NCBI GenBank assembly: GCA_000165425.1
Contig: CT867994.1
Span: 124,001-188,000, forward strand
Length of the DNA stretch: 64,000 bases
Source: Paramecium tetraurelia
Taxonomy: Eukaryota
Direction: 5' to 3'
In this document: piece after piece, positions 17,385 through 26,223 of the stretch
How the letters are laid out: every line of letters starts with the position of its first letter
How positions within the stretch are numbered: position 1 is the stretch's first letter
Made by a program: the position numbers and the translations under genes
The notes under the pieces: generated by a model
Databases searched by the model: none
Told to the model about the DNA's origin: nothing
The model's input: the letters and a program-made list of their open reading frames with translations, nothing else

Positions 17385-18710
17385 TCACTTCTAAGCAATT
17401 TTTGTCTTCTCTCTTTACTACGAAATTATCTGATTTAACAAGTTCTATTCTTTGATAGCTTCCAATCCAGACAGTTGTTGAACTCTCTTGAGCATTGAAA
17501 TATTCAGTTTATTGGCAGTAGGTTTATCCTTGGCTACTTGAGGGTTATTATATTCTTGTGATAGAAGTTATCTTGGCAATTCAACTGAGTGATTAAGATG
17601 CTGCAATTGTTGTTTTTATTGTCTTAACAATTTTTATTTGATTTAATTTGAGTTAAGTTGTTACAAGGAGATGAAATTATTATTCTCATTAGATTCTGGA
17701 TTGTTGGTTGTTGATTTAAATTTGAGTATTTTGCCTTGAATTTCAAAATCGTTTATTCTTTCAATTGAATGTTATTTATATCTTGGAACTTGTGTTATTT
17801 GTTTGTGATCAGAAACGGATCTCTTTTATTTCTCATTTTGATATCCCTGCACACTGTGATACCTATTACTTTTGACAATTTTCAAGGGGGAATTATTCAA
17901 CAGCCTTTGCTCCTAATATTCTTTTAAATATAAATCATCTTCTTCCTATTCTTATTCTTCCATCAAATCCTAAAGGAAATCTGTAACCATAGGTAATTGA
18001 TTTAAGCTTTCCCATGTCAGACCAGTATGTCTTTATTGTGAAGAGACATTAAAACTCTAATCCTATTCCTTTATAGAAAAGGTTTTGGGTTTGGAAGGAT
18101 CAGGTAATTTCTCAATCAGTTCTTTTAAGGCTGGGTATTTAATTAACAGTTATGATTTAGTAAAGTGTTTCAGTTCAAATTACAACTTATAAAAGGCTTT
18201 CTTTTTTCTTTCTATGAGTTTCAATTATTCATTTTATTGTTTCCTTTATAATAAAATTTATTTGATTTATTCATCATTTTTGACCTCTGGATGATATATT
18301 TTAAATTGATATTTGATATCTTTAATTCTTTCAGCTTAATCTTACATTTAAAATGGTCTTTGAAATGTTTTCATTTTTTAAACACAAGCTTTCCAGTTGT
18401 CCAATCCTAAACTTGTTAAATATTGTCCACAATTTGTCCCTTCTTCGCCTGCCAAGATATTTAACAATTAAACAAACTAATCAAAATTTAGCTCCTTTGA
18501 ATTTTTAGCTTGCCTTTTGAATAACTCCAATAGTTTCGAAGTATTTATTTTCACTTAAAAATCCCTACAAAAATGCATCCAGTTACCAACAGTAAATACA
18601 GTGGCTTCATATTATTATCTATCAAAGGTGGCAAATTATCCTGGAACATACTACTGTTTGCAATAGAAGTCAAAAACTCTGCGTAAAACTTCTTTGTTTT
18701 GCATAATCAT
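17385..18710 (-). CDS. Conserved ciliate hypothetical protein
   Basis: MIMQNKEVLRRVFDFYCKQQYVPGQFATFDR...WMHFCRDF. Start is 18710 or 18704; TGA at 17385-17387. Confidence 0.65.
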
Positions 18711-19552
18711 TATTTTTATATATATAATTGCTAAAATTCTTCAATATTTTCATCCTCCTCTATCCATCTAACCCTTTTCCCCATATTCCATTCCCCTCTC
18801 TTAGTAATTCCATCTTTAGTAAATAAGCCATAACCATGTTGCTTCCCCTGATGCCAAAATCCAACATATACTCTACCATCTGGCCAAACAAATCTTCCTA
18901 TTCCCTCTTTTAATTCATCTTCATAGGGTCCATCATATAGACGACCATCTGGCCATTTCATAATTCCATTAACAAACTGATTCTTTACCCACTCTCCTCT
19001 AAATTCACTCCCATCAGCCCATTTAAAAATGCCTTATCCATGAATATCCCCCTCAAAAAAGTCTCCTCTATAATAAGATGAGTCCACAAATTCAATGTAG
19101 CCTTTGCCGTGTCGCTTGCCATCTTTATAATTCCCCTTATACACAGCCTCATCAGAAAATCGTTCAGAACCACTGCCATTTTACAAATTATGTTCCCATT
19201 TGCCTTCATAAATTGACGTATTGGTCTTCAATTAGCCCTGTCCATGGCATTCCCCCTGTTAAAAGGTGCCAATATAGAGATAGTTTTCAGCCGATAGTTT
19301 TCCTTATCCATGAAAAAGGCTATTCTCAAAGAAACCCTCATATCTCCTGCCATCATCCATAACCAAAATACCCCAGCCATGCATTCTATTATCCTCCATT
19401 TAACCATGATATCGTCCGCCCTCCACTATAATCCAATCTCTCTATGTTTGCTCATCATCCTCTTCTGTTCTATAGAGGTGATGCAAATTTAAATAAGTCT
19501 CATGCAACACCAATTCTCTTTAATTAACAGACTAAGATGTGCAACAACCCAT
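18707..19552 (-). CDS. MORN-repeat protein with N-terminal MGCC acylation-like motif
   Basis: Repeated YEG..W/F.....HG.G...WPDG units; the frame continues past the ORF-track end through TAG/TAA codons to TGA at 18709-18707. Confidence 0.9.
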
Positions 19553-19576
19553 TCAGTTAATTTAAATAATTAAAAA

Positions 19577-19909
19577 ATGGAACAAAATTTAGATGAAAAG
19601 ATGTATGCCATAGATCAAAAATAAAAAGATAAATTTCCACTCACGAATTAGATATCTTAGGATTTTGAAGACGATACACACATATACCGAATAATAAGAC
19701 TGGGAAGGGAATCTGTGAGACTTATGCAGGAGTTTAAATGGGAGAGTATCATATTTAATTATTCTTTTCTAGAAAAGCTTCTCAAAGAAGAAGAATGGAG
19801 ACGACTGAGAGTGTATTAACGTCGAGGATGGTTACATTATGCCATTTTTGAGAAGGAACCATACGTTTTGTTATTCAAAAGAAAGATTACCAAAAATAAG
19901 AGATCCTGA
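19577..19909 (+). CDS. Divergent cyclin-dependent kinase regulatory subunit (Cks/Suc1 family)
   Basis: DDTHIYRII...LLKEEEWRRLRVYQRRGWLHYAIFEKEPYVLLFKR; one short intron. Confidence 0.85.
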
Positions 19910-20019
19910 AAAACTCTGATTTTAGATGTTTGTATCATTAAGTATTTCTATTTTATTAAGTTTCATATTATCACTATTTGATTTAATAAATTATTATTAT
20001 TTAATAATTAAATCTAATA

Positions 20020-20953
20020 ATGTCTAACATATTAAGACTCTGCCCAAAATGCTAAGCAAGTCCTGCCACAATCTAGTGCATTGATTGCGAAGAAAAAATG
20101 TGCTATACTTGTGATCAGAAGGTACATACAAAATTGAAATAACACAAAACTGATATAATCCCGTATTCATGTACAATATATATTAAAAAAGAGATGAAAT
20201 AGATTAAATCAGCCTAATTTATAATTAGTGGCATCAAAGACCACTCTAATGTATCATTAGAATTGCAATAAGAACTTAATGAATTAGAAGCTATGATCGA
20301 GGCCAAATAATCATTCCTAAGCAAGTAAGAGTAGAAGTGGAGCACATAAATCAGTTCTCTTGAAACCTAATATGAAAAGAAATTATTAGATTTTGAAAAA
20401 GAAATTGAAAACAATGAAAATTAATTTAAGAATTATTAGTCTAGTGGAAATACAACTTTTACAATTGCTGACATAAAATAATCAATGGAAGCATAACAGC
20501 AGTAAATATTTATATTTTATAAATAGATAAGCTTGGAAAGAGCTGAATGAGAGGAAAGCTGCACTATAAGATAAAGAAAATCTACTCTAAGACATGATTG
20601 AAGCTGAGAAGATTTGTTTAAAAGAAATTGCATAGAAGGAGAAATTGATCAATCAGTTTAAAGATTTATTATCTTAGTAATAAGCTGAAAGAGATCTTAT
20701 AAAATAAGAAAATCAAAAAATACTGGCATAATTAGAATCCATAAAGGCCTTATGTAAGAAAAGTTTGCCTTAGTATGGAATTAAAGTTGATTTTTTGGAT
20801 AAATTGGGAAAAGGGAATAAAATTAAGAAAAATGAATAAGTAGATGAACAAGATGAAGAATATGAGGAGGATGAATAATAAGATTAAAATGGAGATGAAG
20901 AAGAAGAGGATGAAAACTAAAATGATGATGATTAATAGGAAGAATAATAATGA
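20020..20953 (+). CDS. B-box zinc finger plus coiled-coil protein with acidic tail
   Basis: CPKCQASPATIQCIDCEEKMCYTCDQKVH, followed by a heptad-rich region and a D/E/Q-rich C-terminus; TGA at 20951-20953. Confidence 0.75.
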
Positions 20954-20999
20954 TTTTATATTCATTTTTAAACAAAATTAAATTTATAAATTATTACAA

Positions 21000-23647
21000 T
21001 CATTTATATCCAACAAATAAATTAAATGCTACAACAATTAAACCAATCGAATAATTTCTCAAAAGTACTGAGATACTGTGATAATCTTAATTTGACTAAT
21101 TAATGAATTAATTGATTAAATTAATTATCAGACCATATATAATACCTTCAATTTATTATAACACCTATTTAATAGGTTTAACCATAATAAAAACATGTTT
21201 GCTAAATAGCAATCCTATATAGACATCTTAAACAGACTTAAAATATCCATAGTAATAGGCAACCAGCAATTCAACAATTAAAATAGAATGCAATTTATAT
21301 AGTTTCCTAGTGGTATTCCTATCAATGATTCTACCTTGTTTCATATATGGACCTCTGTGCATCACATAGGTTTGCACATCTGAATTGCATTATTTTTGTA
21401 CTTAATGTGAAAAATGATTCAAAGCTAAATAGAAGATGATGAAGGTTGGAATTGGCATAATGAAAATGTTATCAGATAAAATGGCAGAGGCAATTGCAAA
21501 TATCATTATAGTTTATGAAGTACAAGCCTAGGCATAGGAGTATGACAAAATATAGAAATACACCGCCCTTCCTTAACTTATACACTCGTACATGGAGGAT
21601 ATGTAACTGTAATCAGTTTACTCGAGATGATTAAATAGTTTGATGCAGGATCTAGACTCATGTGGTCCAATACTAACATGAGCCATTTCCATAGCTTTTC
21701 CATCATTTTCCTCTCCTTTGATAAATATTATCTTGTCATAGAGTTTAAGCAAATTTATCAATTGCTCTTTTCTATCAGCATTCCCTCCAATGATAATGTT
21801 TTTATTTTTGATTTCCTCATATAGCTTTTATTAATCAATAATTCCTTAGAATTGGAATTTCTACTTTTATTATTCCAACCATTCCAAAGTCTTGCTCGAT
21901 TAAATCTTTTCTAGTTTCAAATGATCCAAAGTGGGACAAGCAAGTCTTCTACTCAAAAATACAAATTTATTCTTCTATTCAAAACTACTGCTAAGCAATG
22001 TACCTTCGACATATCTATCCTCAATTTCATCTTCTTTCACAAGACCTGTTTGAATTGCTGTTTTTTAAGCCTCTTCCAATTATAATTGAGTGAAGTATCT
22101 AATATTTATTTATGATTTACTAAACATAGTCACTTTATTATCTATCTTATCAATAATCATTTCGTTTACTTACCCCAACCAATATAATGAAAGATAATCC
22201 TATATATAAATACTTCTGTGTCTGCATTTCTTTATCACATAAATCATAAACAAATTGATCAATGAAAGCAATTAAGATGGAATAGTAATAATTGATAATT
22301 ATGATAAATATAATAGGATTTGAGTAATGTTGATCAAATAAGTATTCCTGAAAAGTAATATTATTAATAAAATAAGTAAGCTAATGATACATTGTATTCC
22401 AATCTTATTCATAAGGGATTCAATCTTAAAAGCAAAAGGATTATACATAGAATTCTATTTCAAATAGGTTGTTCTTTATTTTTCTGTCTTTGTGTCTTCT
22501 AAAAATGACTGTTTGTATTAAATGTAATCAGATGATTGTTATCCAACACTACAAACAAGCAATTATCCAGATCCCTTTATTATTTGAGAACCAGCAAAAA
22601 TGAAGTTGTCAACCAAACTTAAGTTGGATTGTAATTACTCATCATGTGAACCATTCGATTCTTTGACTTCATCTATGTTTTTGACTTCATGAGTGTTAAA
22701 AAGATTAGGAAATGGTTACAACACCTCAATTCCATTACATTTAGATAATTTAGTTATTATACCATCACATTATATAAAATCTCCCTGCTTGAAAATCAGT
22801 ATGTCTCCAACAACCAATTAACTATTATGAATTTAAATTGTGTCATCTCCATTTCTTAATACATTACAACGCTTTACTAAATGCTTACTCCTCTCTTTTA
22901 TATCATTCTAGTGTTACACTATCTCTTTGTTGTATTATTATTTGATCACTCCCTTATAGACAACCATTATTATCAACATTATTATATAAAACAAGTAGAT
23001 CTACATGTTTTCATGGAAATATATTATGATATTGATAGTTGTTATTATCAATAATAATTAAAATAATCTTTCTTTTTGAAATTGCTCAATTATAATTTAC
23101 AGTACACTTTTAATTGCTATCTAAGGCTTTTCATTCTTTCCAAAGTACTTTTCTCTCATTTTCAAGTCTTAATCGTTGGTGTCATCCAAGCCTTACTTTA
23201 TGCAAGTCTTTAAAAAGTTCTATAAACCATAAATGCCTCCTAGTTGATTGAGTTTTTCTAATTAGATTTTTAATTTTTTCTCTTTCAAATCCTTCTCTTT
23301 ATCATGTTTTGTTAAAGTGCTTTGAGCTTCTTTTAGTATTTAATTCATATCAAATATTTCTAATAATTTCTCATATTAAAATCCAAAATAATGATCATCA
23401 TTTTGCTATTATTTATTTTCATTTTTCTTCCATCCTTTTAGAAGTGTCTTCCATTAACCTTTTGCTTCCAATATCTATTACATTTATTGGATTCTATCTC
23501 TAAGATTTCATCCTTTTTTTAATGCTTCTCAAAATCATTCAAATCTAAACTTCTAAGAACTTGCATCTCTATCATTTAAGCTCTTTGTTCCGATTCTCGA
23601 TGGAGTTTTAATAAGGGACTGTGTAATTAATCTGTCTCATTTTACAT
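21000..23647 (-). CDS. PMCA-like P-type ATPase homologue lacking the N domain, with degenerate catalytic motifs (874 aa)
   Basis: LGGIYGLQNFLKT...REKYFGKN, VLRNG...LVVGDI...GDFIQCDG, FIFAGSQIIKGSG, GRAVY and MHRGPY. One 23-nt intron (23459-23481); no internal TGA. Confidence 0.85.
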
Positions 23648-24734
23648 ACTTACTTAATTTATTATATTATATCAAAGTAATAATTAAATTAATATACATA
23701 ATAGAATATAGTCTTAATTGTAAGTTCAATCTTCTCGTTACATCTACATACATAGTGTTTATAAAACATAAATATTTCAATAATCAAATGTGAAGTGAGC
23801 TTCTATTTCTAATATTGTTGAAGAGTTACCTTCTAGGAAACTAATCAATAATTTATCTACTTAGGTTTTTGGTATTATTATATATTATATCTAAAAAAGT
23901 TTAAATTCAAGAATTGCCTTTTTATAGCCATAAATCAAAGTTTTACTTAATAAAATTATTATGATAGAACTAAAACTATCCAATAAATACACTATAATTA
24001 GTTGTACTGTCCTATTAGAGTAAATTGTATGCATACAACATTACTATTTAATCATTTGGACAAGCAATCAGTAAATACAATGACTAAAGGATGATTATTT
24101 AATAATTGATTATTCTCAGAACTATAATGTAATTAATACTCTTTAAATTTTAGTAGATAATAATCAAAATCAAAGGAACATGTGGAGTTCACTTTAAAAA
24201 AAGAAAAAAATTTCTTAAATAATTAATATTACACCAGTATTTTGTAAAACTGCATAAAATACATTCATTAAAACTGTTACATTTACAAATTATATACCAA
24301 CTTAAAATTATTATTAAGCTAGCGTCCTTTATCAATTTGCGAAAATATAATTGTTAAGTGACAAACCATGATTTCATAATTAAATTATTTCTACAAAATC
24401 ATTTGTATTTACAAATCCAAGAAAAACCTATTTAAAATAATGAAGGTATAATTAGATGATTTAAACTTGATTGACTCCCGTTTAAAAGAGGTGTATAATC
24501 GTCATTCTTTGACGAAAGGTCATCATTGTCAGAAATTAAGTTCATTTCATTATTTAGTCTATTAATTCAGATAAACCATAAACTAAGTTTTGTTTAGAAA
24601 GCTGTGACAAATATTATAATATCAAAGTAACACTCTATATAAATAAATAATGCGAAGGGAAAGATATCTAAAGTTGTAAAATAACTTTACATTTTTCTTA
24701 TTATATATTAATATATATTAGATATAATCATAAT

Positions 24735-26223
24735 TCACTTAATTTTAAAAGTTTGTCTATATTTTTCTTTTCCTTTTTCACCTTATATGTATCCTCATGA
24801 ACAATCTCTGATGCATGATAGTCTGAAACTTATTGTTTTGTTTCAACAACTTTATAGGCATTTGCTGAATCAACATGAAATTTTAGTTTATGATTCAGCC
24901 AATGATATTTATCATTTTAAATTTTCTCATCCTTGAGTCTCTCTTGAAACTTTCTTACTTTTTCCTCAAATGCCTCATTATGGGATTGTTCTTTCATATT
25001 TTGGATAAACCTTGCTCTCCTTTATTCCACAGTAGATTATAGCATTTTTTCATGTTGTAACCTATCTCTAATCATGGGATTATTTGATCCAAATTTATTC
25101 TCTTTAAATTACAGGAAGTCTGCTTTTAATTTTTCATATTCCTCCAACTATTTCTCTCTTTATTATCTTTATTCTTCATCTTCGATTTCTGAGGATTCAG
25201 ACTCAGAAGATTCTGATTCTGATTCATTGAAAATGTATTGAACTTCTCCTTTTGCATTCTTTTTAATTTTGTAATTTAATAATTGTTTATCTTCAGCTGG
25301 GATATTTTCTAAATACTTTTCATTCATTGATATATTTTTATTAGCATACTAAGCAATCTATTCTTTGTTGATTTAAGTGTTACTTTATTGAGTAATCTTT
25401 TATTTGAGTTAGAGAATCTTATTTTCTTCTTCTAATTTCTTCTGTTTTTTAATCCTATGTAAATAATGAGAAATAAATACTCTAATTCTTCTTGGGATAC
25501 AGCAAATTCCTTTTTCAATTTAGGATCATTAAGTACATCATGACTATTGAAGATCTTATTTGGTTATTGTTCCTCATTATCTTCTTCGTCACCAAAGGAC
25601 AAGACATTGATATTTTTTTACTTCTATTTAGGTTTTTAAATTGGTTTCTAGTTTATTTTTTCTTAGACTTAGTTAATTTCTTTTTCAGGAGATTTTGGCT
25701 TAACCCCCTCGGTGATTGTCAAATTAAATGGATCTATAACTACTTATGCACTTTTTATAAAGATTGGTGTCACTGGCTAATCATTTTCATCGGTGTCGAC
25801 TCCATTCATAGCCATCAAATTGAAAATGGTCTTTCCTACTACCATGCCAAATATCGTATGTCTCTTTTACAACCAAGGACAAGAATCCAATGTTATAAAA
25901 AACTATGACTCATTGGTATTAGGACCTTCATTACTATATGCTAGAATTCCCCTTGTGCAAAAAGTGAGTCTGGAATGAAATTCATCTTCAAATGGTTAGC
26001 CATACATTGATTTTCCTCCCTCTCCTGTTCCTGTGGGATCACCTCCTTGAATCATGAAATTAGGAAACAATCTATGAAAGCGACAATTATCATAATATCC
26101 ATTCAAACACAATTGAATGAAGTTTCTGCATCCCTTAGGCACTTCCTTACACCATAATTCAATTTCTAATTCTCCATGGGATGTATCCATAATAATCTTG
26201 CCTGATGTTTATGGAAATTACAT
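24735..26223 (-). CDS. CWC27: Spliceosomal cyclophilin-type protein
   Basis: GKIIMDTSHGELEIELWCKEVPKGCRNFIQLCL...QGGDPTGTGEGG...FEDEFHSRL, then LSFGDEE and a C-terminal HKLKFH. Confidence 0.9.

Follow-up and report, generated by a model that had tools for sequence, protein, structure and literature searches.

Can a P-type ATPase lose its entire nucleotide-binding (N) domain and still be kept by selection, and what could such a protein do? The question is raised by a locus in the window analysed here, a stretch of 64,000 nucleotides of Paramecium tetraurelia (assembly GCA_000165425.1, contig CT867994.1, positions 124,001 to 188,000 of the forward strand; G000:C11:124001-188000 in the genome searched, which comprises 72.09 Mb in 697 contigs). 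On its minus strand, at window positions 21000-23647, lies a gene resembling the calcium pumps of the PMCA (P2B) type, in a region that reads under genetic code table 6. A first-pass annotation had read it as an intact, non-pumping PMCA derivative kept for another role, such as that of a scaffold, regulator or passive leak. Our analysis supports a maintained, non-pumping derivative; the choice among the three roles is a matter of probability and is weighed below. The gene is real, expressed and selected, it apparently represents an undescribed P-type pseudo-ATPase set apart by the loss of the whole N domain, and this condition has probably evolved more than once. Sources cited as "in part" are limited to the accessible portion of the article.

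Loss of the nucleotide-binding domain

The proposed absence of the N domain is borne out by alignment. In a profile built from 38 intact P2 pumps, columns 17-385 correspond to residues 113-501 of an 882-residue P. octaurelia copy (P0012), and the alignment resumes at column 610 with residue 502. About 225 columns (386-609), the whole N domain including the KGA motif with the ATP-binding Lys (column 516), are without residues. Four motif-degenerate pumps used as controls align straight across this region. The spacing from the acceptor Asp to the Thr of the TGD position is 20 residues in the window protein, compared to 170-527 (median 230.5) in 92 intact pumps. The deletion removed the T-G-T of the DKTGT signature, the entire N domain and the DPxR hinge, and left the tail of the helix that precedes the xGIxV strand.

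Four sequencing runs were mapped on window positions 19500-25500, among them contigs of a run that we take to be of RNA type (X3; the type is guessed), contigs of a DNA-type run with even coverage (X15) and raw reads (X20). The junction is spanned by X15 record 5 (21018-22455) and X3 record 10 (21032-22306) with no difference and no gap, and therefore reflects neither a mis-assembly, which the first-pass annotation had named as a way in which it could fail, nor a hidden intron. The Pfam search that it had suggested matches PF00690 and PF00122 and nothing else; we do not count the missing N-domain match by itself as evidence, as P0038, which retains its N domain, likewise lacks PF13246. All 37 sequence matches in the PDB are P2 pumps. 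A global alignment with full-length pumps (A3), in which the residues behind the junction are scattered over the N domain, was set aside.

Among the proteins compared, P0119 (601 amino acids) has an intact DKTGT and GDGxND and large internal gaps in the A (actuator) and N domains, probably due to a faulty gene model. It cautions that a short Asp-Thr spacing by itself can be an artefact.

Transcription, selection and copies in Paramecium

The gene is transcribed at a low level. Two stranded oligo-dT runs of one study cover 12 and 11 of the 13 bins over 21108-23720 at a depth of up to 3.3, all on one strand, while the opposite strand has zero depth in each of the 13 bins. The adjoining interval 23721-24725 is empty, and the signal of the plus-strand neighbour has the reverse orientation.

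The gene is likewise under strong purifying selection. Its genome-duplication twin, a syntenic paralogue on contig C64 (81% identical over 4.2 kb, 84.6% over the gene), differs from it over 817 codons by 1.17 synonymous (dS) and 0.046 nonsynonymous (dN) substitutions per site, a dN/dS of 0.039, with values of 0.010-0.053 in each of five segments. Two copies occur in each of the five aurelia species seen: besides the P. tetraurelia pair there are eight full-length orthologues, two each in P. primaurelia, P. pentaurelia, P. octaurelia and P. sonneborni. The copies of the four species other than P. sonneborni form two clean duplication clades, and the sonneborni pair stands apart. Transcription, low dN/dS and intact orthologues together answer the concern, raised at first pass, that a decaying pseudogene had been mistaken for a gene.

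The C64 copy carries a two-base frameshift in this assembly (G000:C64, L006 5618-5619). Its identity to the P. octaurelia orthologue is 98.0% on one side of the frameshift and 98.9% on the other, and it therefore has not decayed. The frameshift may be an assembly error or a very recent loss; the public record of this copy is a 470-residue partial protein labelled as an ABC transmembrane domain protein.

Judging from sequence similarity, fragments carry the family beyond the aurelia group; being fragments, they do not make the full architecture visible. The insertion in the P (phosphorylation) domain is 45% identical over 58 residues to a protein fragment of P. bursaria. The stalk between the fourth membrane segment (M4) and the P domain is 63% identical over 43 residues to P0113, where the acceptor Asp is kept, the M1-M2 and A-domain stretch 35% over 148 residues to P0017, and M5-M10 25% over 226 residues to P0051. 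The best-kept stretches are thus cytosolic, in what is a rough comparison of fragments from different organisms. Scans of metagenomes for DNA of such distant orthologues found nothing. No Tetrahymena orthologue appeared in the protein searches made, which is no evidence of absence, as the proteins of ciliates using code 6 are fragmented in the collections.

Reading frame and assembly

The first-pass annotation had reported a frame of 874 codons without internal TGA, which does not hold for the window as assembled. The minus-strand frame ending in the TGA at 21000 is open for 835 codons and closed at its 5' end by a TGA at 23508-23510; its first in-frame ATG, at 23483, gives 827 amino acids, and the ATG at 23647 lies in another frame. 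The figure of 874 was presumably obtained by subtracting from the span a 23-nt GT..AG stretch at 23459-23481. As an intron this stretch is ruled out: it codes for residues conserved in the orthologues and is present in an RNA-type contig.

Instead, the contigs of both contig runs (X3 and X15) have one extra base behind 23481. With this base the span is 2649 nt, or 882 codons and a stop, which matches the 881-883 amino acids of the aurelia orthologues. Over 55 residues the frame upstream shares 92.7% identity with the N-terminal end of P0013, a P. octaurelia copy. Most likely, therefore, the gene has no intron and is interrupted in this assembly alone. Against an assembly deletion counts that the extra base is seen in none of about two raw X20 reads.

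At 23504 and 23557 the X3 and X15 contigs read A where the window reads G, and the raw X20 reads show the same substitutions (1/1 and 3/3). Their presence in all runs covering these positions could mean that the assembly is poor around the gene's 5' end or that the strains differ. The X15 contigs also have many loose ends (those listed include 19929, 20815, 22307, 23805, 23930 and 24150, with at least 41 more), none of those listed being located at the N-domain junction, and a joint between 20525 and 23835. Germline sequence that is eliminated, paralogues or noise in the assembly graph are all possible sources.

Motifs kept and lost

The changes that the first-pass annotation had read in three catalytic or ion-binding motifs, DKTGT, the PEGL of M4 and TGDGxND, are confirmed to the exact coordinates (Table 1). 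Its statement that TGES is missing goes too far: the protein has T-H-E-V at this place, where Thr and Glu align with those of the motif. The window protein keeps 32 of the 69 columns that do not vary among 28 intact pumps, and its identity to the pump consensus is 24%. Lost are the M4 Glu, the M5 Asn, the M6 Asp, the Gly of TGES, the G-D of TGD, D-P-x-R and the Mg-binding Asp of GDG, now a Glu; in register (numbering of the 882-residue protein) are T319, E321, P457 in M4, D500-K501, T520, K627, G645 and N648-D649. What the annotation had not noticed is that much of the phosphoryl-transfer core of the P domain thus appears to survive the deletion, which leaves some residual chemistry as an alternative to a fully inert protein.

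We find no enrichment of catalytic residues among the kept columns in a test that has little power: 9 of 17 catalytic invariant columns are kept compared to 23 of 52 other invariant columns (Fisher p 0.58; the T-G-T of DKTGT, also lost, is outside the 17). The survivors therefore need not be under catalytic selection.

The Asn of M6 is a Ca2+ ligand in active P2B pumps. So is the Asp of M6, and DKTGT is the phosphorylation signature of active P-type ATPases (PMC10654040, in part). The five aurelia proteins aligned have DKIDN or DKIDD in place of this signature and IP[ST]QL, without the ion-binding Glu, in M4. The A-domain motif of the aurelia copies is T-[HYQ]-E-V, with the Glu in register beside a loop modelled at low confidence. 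The TGD position reads TQL and GDGxND reads KGEEND, so that neither P-domain motif is intact. The column of the M6 Asp is occupied by Phe, with a register uncertain by one residue, and M6 (668-687) has no acidic residue at all. The signature of the cap-less phosphatases of the HAD fold, DxD in motif I, is not present either: in D-K-I-D the second Asp follows at +3 rather than +2.

Domain architecture and predicted structure

The features of the gene are collected in Table 1.

Table 1. Features of the N-domain-less P-type gene, in window coordinates
Feature	Position	Strand	Remarks
Whole gene, ATG to TGA	21000..23647	-	Table 6; most likely intronless; 882 amino acids if a one-base assembly deletion is allowed for
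Probable one-base assembly deletion splitting the frame	23481..23482	-	X3 and X15 contigs; gap at the same place relative to the paralogue
N-terminal helices of actuator domain (PF00690)	23040..23237	-	Pfam E 4e-06, above cut-off
M1 and M2	22944..23066	-	Hydropathy, model
Actuator (A) domain, beta part (PF00122)	22539..22874	-	Pfam E 2.7e-06, just under cut-off; profile, model
TGES to THEV	22683..22694	-	Thr and Glu kept, in a register that relies on a 4-residue insertion ahead of the motif
M3 and M4, most constrained part	22218..22406	-	Hydropathy, model; dN 0.011 for 22200-22500
M4 PEGL to IPSQL	22269..22283	-	Pro kept, Glu lost
DKTGT to DKIDN	22137..22151	-	Acceptor Asp (22149-22151) and Lys in register, T-G-T gone
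Deletion junction: 13-residue linker and short helix in place of N domain and DPxR hinge	22107..22145	-	Profile alignment, model, contigs
P domain (HAD fold) without cap	21564..22181	-	HAD-motif Thr (22089-22091) and Lys (21768-21770) kept; profile, model
Family-specific P-domain insertion, about 55 residues	21810..21986	-	Profile; low model confidence
TGDGxND to KGEENDG	21699..21719	-	Gly, Asn, Asp kept; Mg-binding Asp to Glu; one residue deleted
M5 and M6	21393..21605	-	Ligands out of register (M5 Asn; M6 Asn/Asp); M6 has polar N-H-x-S-H-Q
M7 to M10 equivalents	21006..21320	-	Weakly hydrophobic, poorly modelled

A first structure prediction from an alignment of 12 rows was unusable, with a mean predicted local distance difference test (pLDDT) of 37 and a predicted template modelling score (pTM) of 0.24. 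A second one, from 86 rows, among them N-less homologues and PMCA pieces of half length, reached pLDDT 67 and pTM 0.67. In this model the A, P and membrane domains have the P-type arrangement, and the chain runs across the junction as a strand (431-434), a helix (439-444) and a strand (450-455) at pLDDT 80-86. Helices are placed at all ten membrane positions, but residues 741-817 are poorly modelled (pLDDT 42-52 from residue 741 on), and only six segments pass the hydropathy threshold, compared to 9-10 in three comparison proteins. The best structural match is mouse PMCA (Foldseek E 6e-21; Z 27.8, root-mean-square deviation 8.1, 658 residues aligned).

The stop codon follows one residue past the last helix, so there is no C-terminal tail such as the calmodulin-binding one described for Paramecium PMCA (PMC9608856, in part). 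A match to PF00689 was absent from the P. octaurelia copy P0013 up to E 0.1.

Descent from PMCA and probable repeated loss of the N domain

The trees indicate that the window gene descends from a PMCA (P2B) pump. The protein is placed inside the P2B branch with a support of 100; in a tree without the other long branches it still stands on the P2B side of the outgroup branch (95), on a very long branch and without a supported sister. The stem accumulated about 4-5 changes per column, compared to 0.08 between P. tetraurelia and P. sonneborni. This pattern of a burst followed by stasis would fit a change of function and subsequent tight constraint.

A second point that the annotation had not noticed is that what appears to be the same deletion occurs in other lineages. 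The all-against search gave a single cluster at E < 1e-30, the aurelia family. Among the 150 matches listed, other N-less proteins are CAG9318535.1 of Blepharisma stoltei (P0024, 726 residues), P0052 and P0077. With P0052 as query, 21 clusters (ENA/Logan/JGI) at 45-100% identity were found among 54 matches, on contigs of 2-6.5 kb. DKTG, TGES, PEGL and GDGxND are absent from all 22 P0052-family proteins tested, whose C-terminal halves begin at profile columns 600-650. The Asp-Thr spacing in Blepharisma and the P0052 family is 27 and 34 residues, compared to the 20 of the window protein. A profile search with alignment A4 recovered only P0024 among the N-less proteins and missed known members, and hence says nothing on their range.

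The trees put every N-less protein on the P2B side, and in a free tree five N-less rows group on one side with a support of 78, a grouping that carries a long-branch warning. When the Blepharisma protein is held with Blepharisma's own PMCA, the tree is 12.6 log-likelihood units better (approximately unbiased test, p-AU 0.77). Placed singly, it joins its own PMCA (97-98), the P0052 family joins the intact pumps P0023, P0029 and P0109 (94; shared composition may help), and the Paramecium protein goes to the base of P2B with no supported position. For the single placements the four motif-dead pumps P0038, P0102, P0124 and P0050, the long-branch loci L049 and L054 and the other N-less groups were omitted; the locus L071 was outside all trees, and four fragments were used in one tree only. 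The likelihood of the constrained tree, the single placements and the different linker lengths and kept residues favour, but do not prove, separate losses of the N domain in Paramecium, Blepharisma and the P0052 family. A single ancient origin of all N-less proteins is disfavoured by the same constrained tree and by the divergence of the single placements.

A census of the P. tetraurelia genome by PF00690, which missed the window gene itself and is a lower bound, found DKTG and an N domain at 35 of the 37 other loci fetched, the exceptions being one motif-dead P2C-like gene (L059) and one fragmented gene (L071). L059 (1619-4894 on the minus strand; G000:C43, about 219700-223000) is a motif-dead P2C (Na/K-like) pump with a degenerate N domain, in which DKTGT reads NKEAV, TGES reads TGDC and TGDGVND reads GFDTID. 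L071 (G000:C677:649400-654600), P2C-like and broken into pieces over several frames, appears to be a true pseudogene. Three long-branch pumps on the P2B side, L049, L054 and L055 (G000:C61, C678 and C45), have intact DKTGT, PEGL and GDGxND and no match to TGES (SGLT in L049); from these motifs it is possible that their dephosphorylation is altered.

P0038 (an ENA record), P0102, P0092, P0124 and P0050 are full-length PMCA-like proteins that keep the N domain and have lost DKTGT and other motifs; they may be intermediates toward N-less forms. In the ESM Atlas, cyanobacterial clusters (629 and 653 residues) and Bacillota clusters (517-538 residues) have A and membrane families of the P type but neither hydrolase nor N-domain families, in the cyanobacterial case as top feature hits. 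From their family labels they are candidate bacterial N-less forms.

What does the protein do?

The N domain of a P-type ATPase binds ATP and presents the gamma-phosphate to the Asp (PMC13466520, in part); ATP binding by the N domain next to the Asp is likewise described in PMC10654040 (in part). With this domain absent and the M4 Glu lost, an ATP-driven Ca2+ cycle is not credible, and we regard it as very probable that the window protein is not an ATP-driven pump. Beyond this we lean, with a confidence little better than even, toward an ATP-independent pseudo-pump that acts as a membrane scaffold or regulatory partner. A PMCA duplicate would have lost its N domain in one clean deletion, diverged fast and then come under strong purifying selection in a new role. 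The protein would sit in the membrane in a largely fixed conformation, and its cap-less P domain, conserved insertion and M3-M4 stalk would serve as binding surfaces for other proteins, the most plausible setting being Ca2+ or ion-handling complexes of the kind in which its pumping paralogues take part. The surviving Asp, Thr, Lys and Asn-Asp would hold the fold together rather than form a working active site. Working Paramecium PMCAs co-precipitate with ciliary Ca2+ channels (PMC8964087, in part), and the family therefore has protein partners. The cytosolic location of the best-kept stretches, the low expression and the retention of both duplicates also fit a non-catalytic partner in a membrane complex.

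Several points weigh against a scaffold. The role is reached by exclusion rather than from a partner, a localisation or a phenotype. The most constrained part of the gene is M3-M4 (dN 0.011), which also fits a transport path. Register is kept at the acceptor Asp, Thr, Lys and Asn-Asp and at the A-domain Glu, and the Fisher test that finds them unremarkable is low-powered. The resemblance of the model to PMCA is partly circular because PMCA fragments were in its alignment. In TMEM94/ERMA, moreover, the equivalent Asp is reported to be needed for transport despite broken motifs (PMC13322241, in part).

The leading alternative is a passive, uncoupled carrier or leak, in which the membrane domain would allow downhill movement of an ion, a small solute or a lipid, with the A and P domains perhaps acting as a gate. 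Besides the low dN of M3-M4 it can draw on the retained M4 Pro, on polar residues of M5 and M6 (T-S-Q and N-H-x-S-H-Q) that vary little or not at all across the five aligned aurelia proteins, on the M6 Asp kept in the Blepharisma and metagenome N-less proteins and the M4 Glu kept in Blepharisma, and on the lipid held beside M4 in TMEM94 (PMC12134183). The acidic ligands of M4 and M6, however, are not kept in the Paramecium protein, fewer segments pass the hydropathy threshold than in the comparison proteins (six against 9-10), and M5-M10, as seen in the distant fragment P0051, shows the lowest conservation of all parts (25%). The invariance in M5 and M6 is weak evidence given a mean column identity of 93% among the aurelia copies. 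We consider a carrier unlikely.

It is also conceivable, if quite improbable in our judgement, that Asp500 of the cap-less P domain continues to accept phosphate, from a small donor such as inorganic phosphate or an acyl-phosphate, from ATP at a new site or through a partner in trans, and that the A-domain Glu removes the phosphate in a cycle that drives signalling or slow transport. In its favour, D500-K501, T520, K627, G645, N648-D649 and T319-x-E321 align with catalytic residues, P0113 retains the Asp, and all 21 rows of the metagenome family share an Asp that is placed one residue further on. For ERMA, which has an occluded N-domain pocket and no TGES, a requirement for the Asp has nonetheless been reported (PMC13322241, in part). 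Conversely, T-G-T, the G-D of TGD, the DPxR hinge and the Mg-binding Asp of GDG are gone, the catalytic columns are kept no more often than other invariant columns, and in Blepharisma a Ser takes the place of the acceptor. As noted, D-K-I-D also departs from the DxD of HAD phosphatases. TMEM94 itself was found to have neither ATPase activity nor a phosphorylation cycle (PMC12134183).

A decaying pseudogene or assembly artefact, suggested by the frameshifts of both P. tetraurelia copies in this assembly (23481 in the window) and a low read depth (0-3.3), is scarcely credible given that the window frameshift is absent from the contigs of both contig runs, the junction is spanned unchanged, dN/dS is 0.039, eight full-length orthologues exist in four other species and the C64 paralogue matches its orthologue beside its own frameshift.

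A more general idea is that deletion of the N domain yields a repeatedly evolved kind of membrane protein, an ATP-free, cap-less HAD domain on a P-type membrane body, whose exposed Asp, phosphorylated by a donor other than ATP or by a partner, would switch the binding of an ion, a lipid or a partner. The proteins of Paramecium, Blepharisma and the P0052 family would then have reached a single, so far undescribed function independently. We hold this to be improbable; if true, Paramecium is the first place to knock down and assay that function.

Neighbouring genes

The gene is flanked by what we take, by eye, to be a MORN-repeat protein (18707-19552, minus strand) and a B-box/coiled-coil protein (about 20020-20953, plus strand) on one side and, presumably, a cyclophilin (25324-26223, minus strand) on the other. 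A 26-nt intron at 25454 is skipped in X3. The plus-strand neighbour is syntenic at the C64 paralogue, and no functional link was seen among the neighbours.

Implications

P-type ATPases are defined by the architecture of A, P, N and membrane domains, and even the atypical TMEM94/ERMA and the P-type module of ciliate and apicomplexan guanylyl cyclases (P4GC) keep the N domain. A selected and expressed member without it indicates that the P-type scaffold can be retained for work without an ATP cycle; pump-like pseudo-enzymes as such already have precedents. It also bears on the dispute over whether TMEM94 pumps with broken motifs, for here the canonical ATP site is physically gone and the Asp-Lys is kept. 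That the deletion was apparently repeated at nearly the same boundaries suggests a common end-point.

Owing to what is probably an error in the assembly, the gene is mis-annotated; inventories of ciliate Ca2+ pumps would either list genes of this kind as pumps or miss them. Knock-down, tagging and behaviour assays are available in P. tetraurelia, where only two near-identical copies have to be silenced. The literature searched, which leaves supplements and most subscription journals outside its scope, has no account of this gene, of the paralogue identifiers, of the Blepharisma accession or of any N-less P-type ATPase, and the accessible portions of PMC9608856, PMC7016017 and PMC10654040 make no mention of such a protein.

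Comparison with known systems

With the PMCAs (mouse 9gsf/9gse, human PMCA1 6a69, Arabidopsis ACA8 8qmp and the Paramecium PMCAs) the window protein shares the order M1-M2, A, M3-M4, P and M5-M10, a position on the P2B side of every tree and 32 of the 69 invariant columns. In contrast to them it has no N domain, DPxR hinge or C-terminal tail, DKTGT, TGES, TGD, GDGxND and PEGL are all altered, and the M5 and M6 ligands are out of register. By its signature, N domain, M4, M6, GDGxND and tail, its sequence is not that expected of an active pump.

The N-less protein of Blepharisma and the P0052 family resemble it in the place of the deletion, which lies behind the first strand of the P domain and ahead of the helix preceding the xGIxV strand, but are 20-23% identical to it and have other linker lengths. 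They keep the M6 Asp and have the acceptor Asp lost or shifted, while the window protein shows the reverse. In Blepharisma the M4 Glu is kept and a Ser occupies the acceptor position; in the P0052 family the invariant Asp (21 rows) lies one position later.

P4GC of Paramecium, Tetrahymena and Plasmodium has eroded motifs and no demonstrated ATPase activity, and a supporting role has been proposed for it (PMC13466520, in part). The likeness is that of a ciliate P-type module with eroded catalytic motifs. P4GC is, however, P4-type, fused to a cyclase and keeps its N domain, whereas the window gene derives from P2B, lacks the N domain and stops behind its final helix; PF00122 and PF00690 are its sole domain matches, and its frame closes at 21000.

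The closest working likeness of the window protein is most probably animal TMEM94/ERMA (PDB 9JJK series), which likewise has a stand-alone P-type fold, Asp-Lys within a broken motif (DKQGI, compared to DKIDN), no canonical TGES, an altered GDGxND and an M4 Pro without the Glu. TMEM94 is absent from the PDB matches listed, all of which are other P-type pumps; we do not take this as exclusion of kinship. Its two descriptions differ: no ATPase activity or phosphorylation cycle on the one hand (PMC12134183), Asp-dependent Mg2+ uptake despite the broken motifs on the other (PMC13322241, in part). TMEM94, with 1356 residues, keeps a large N-like domain (residues 427-830), while the window protein, which the trees derive from P2B, has none.

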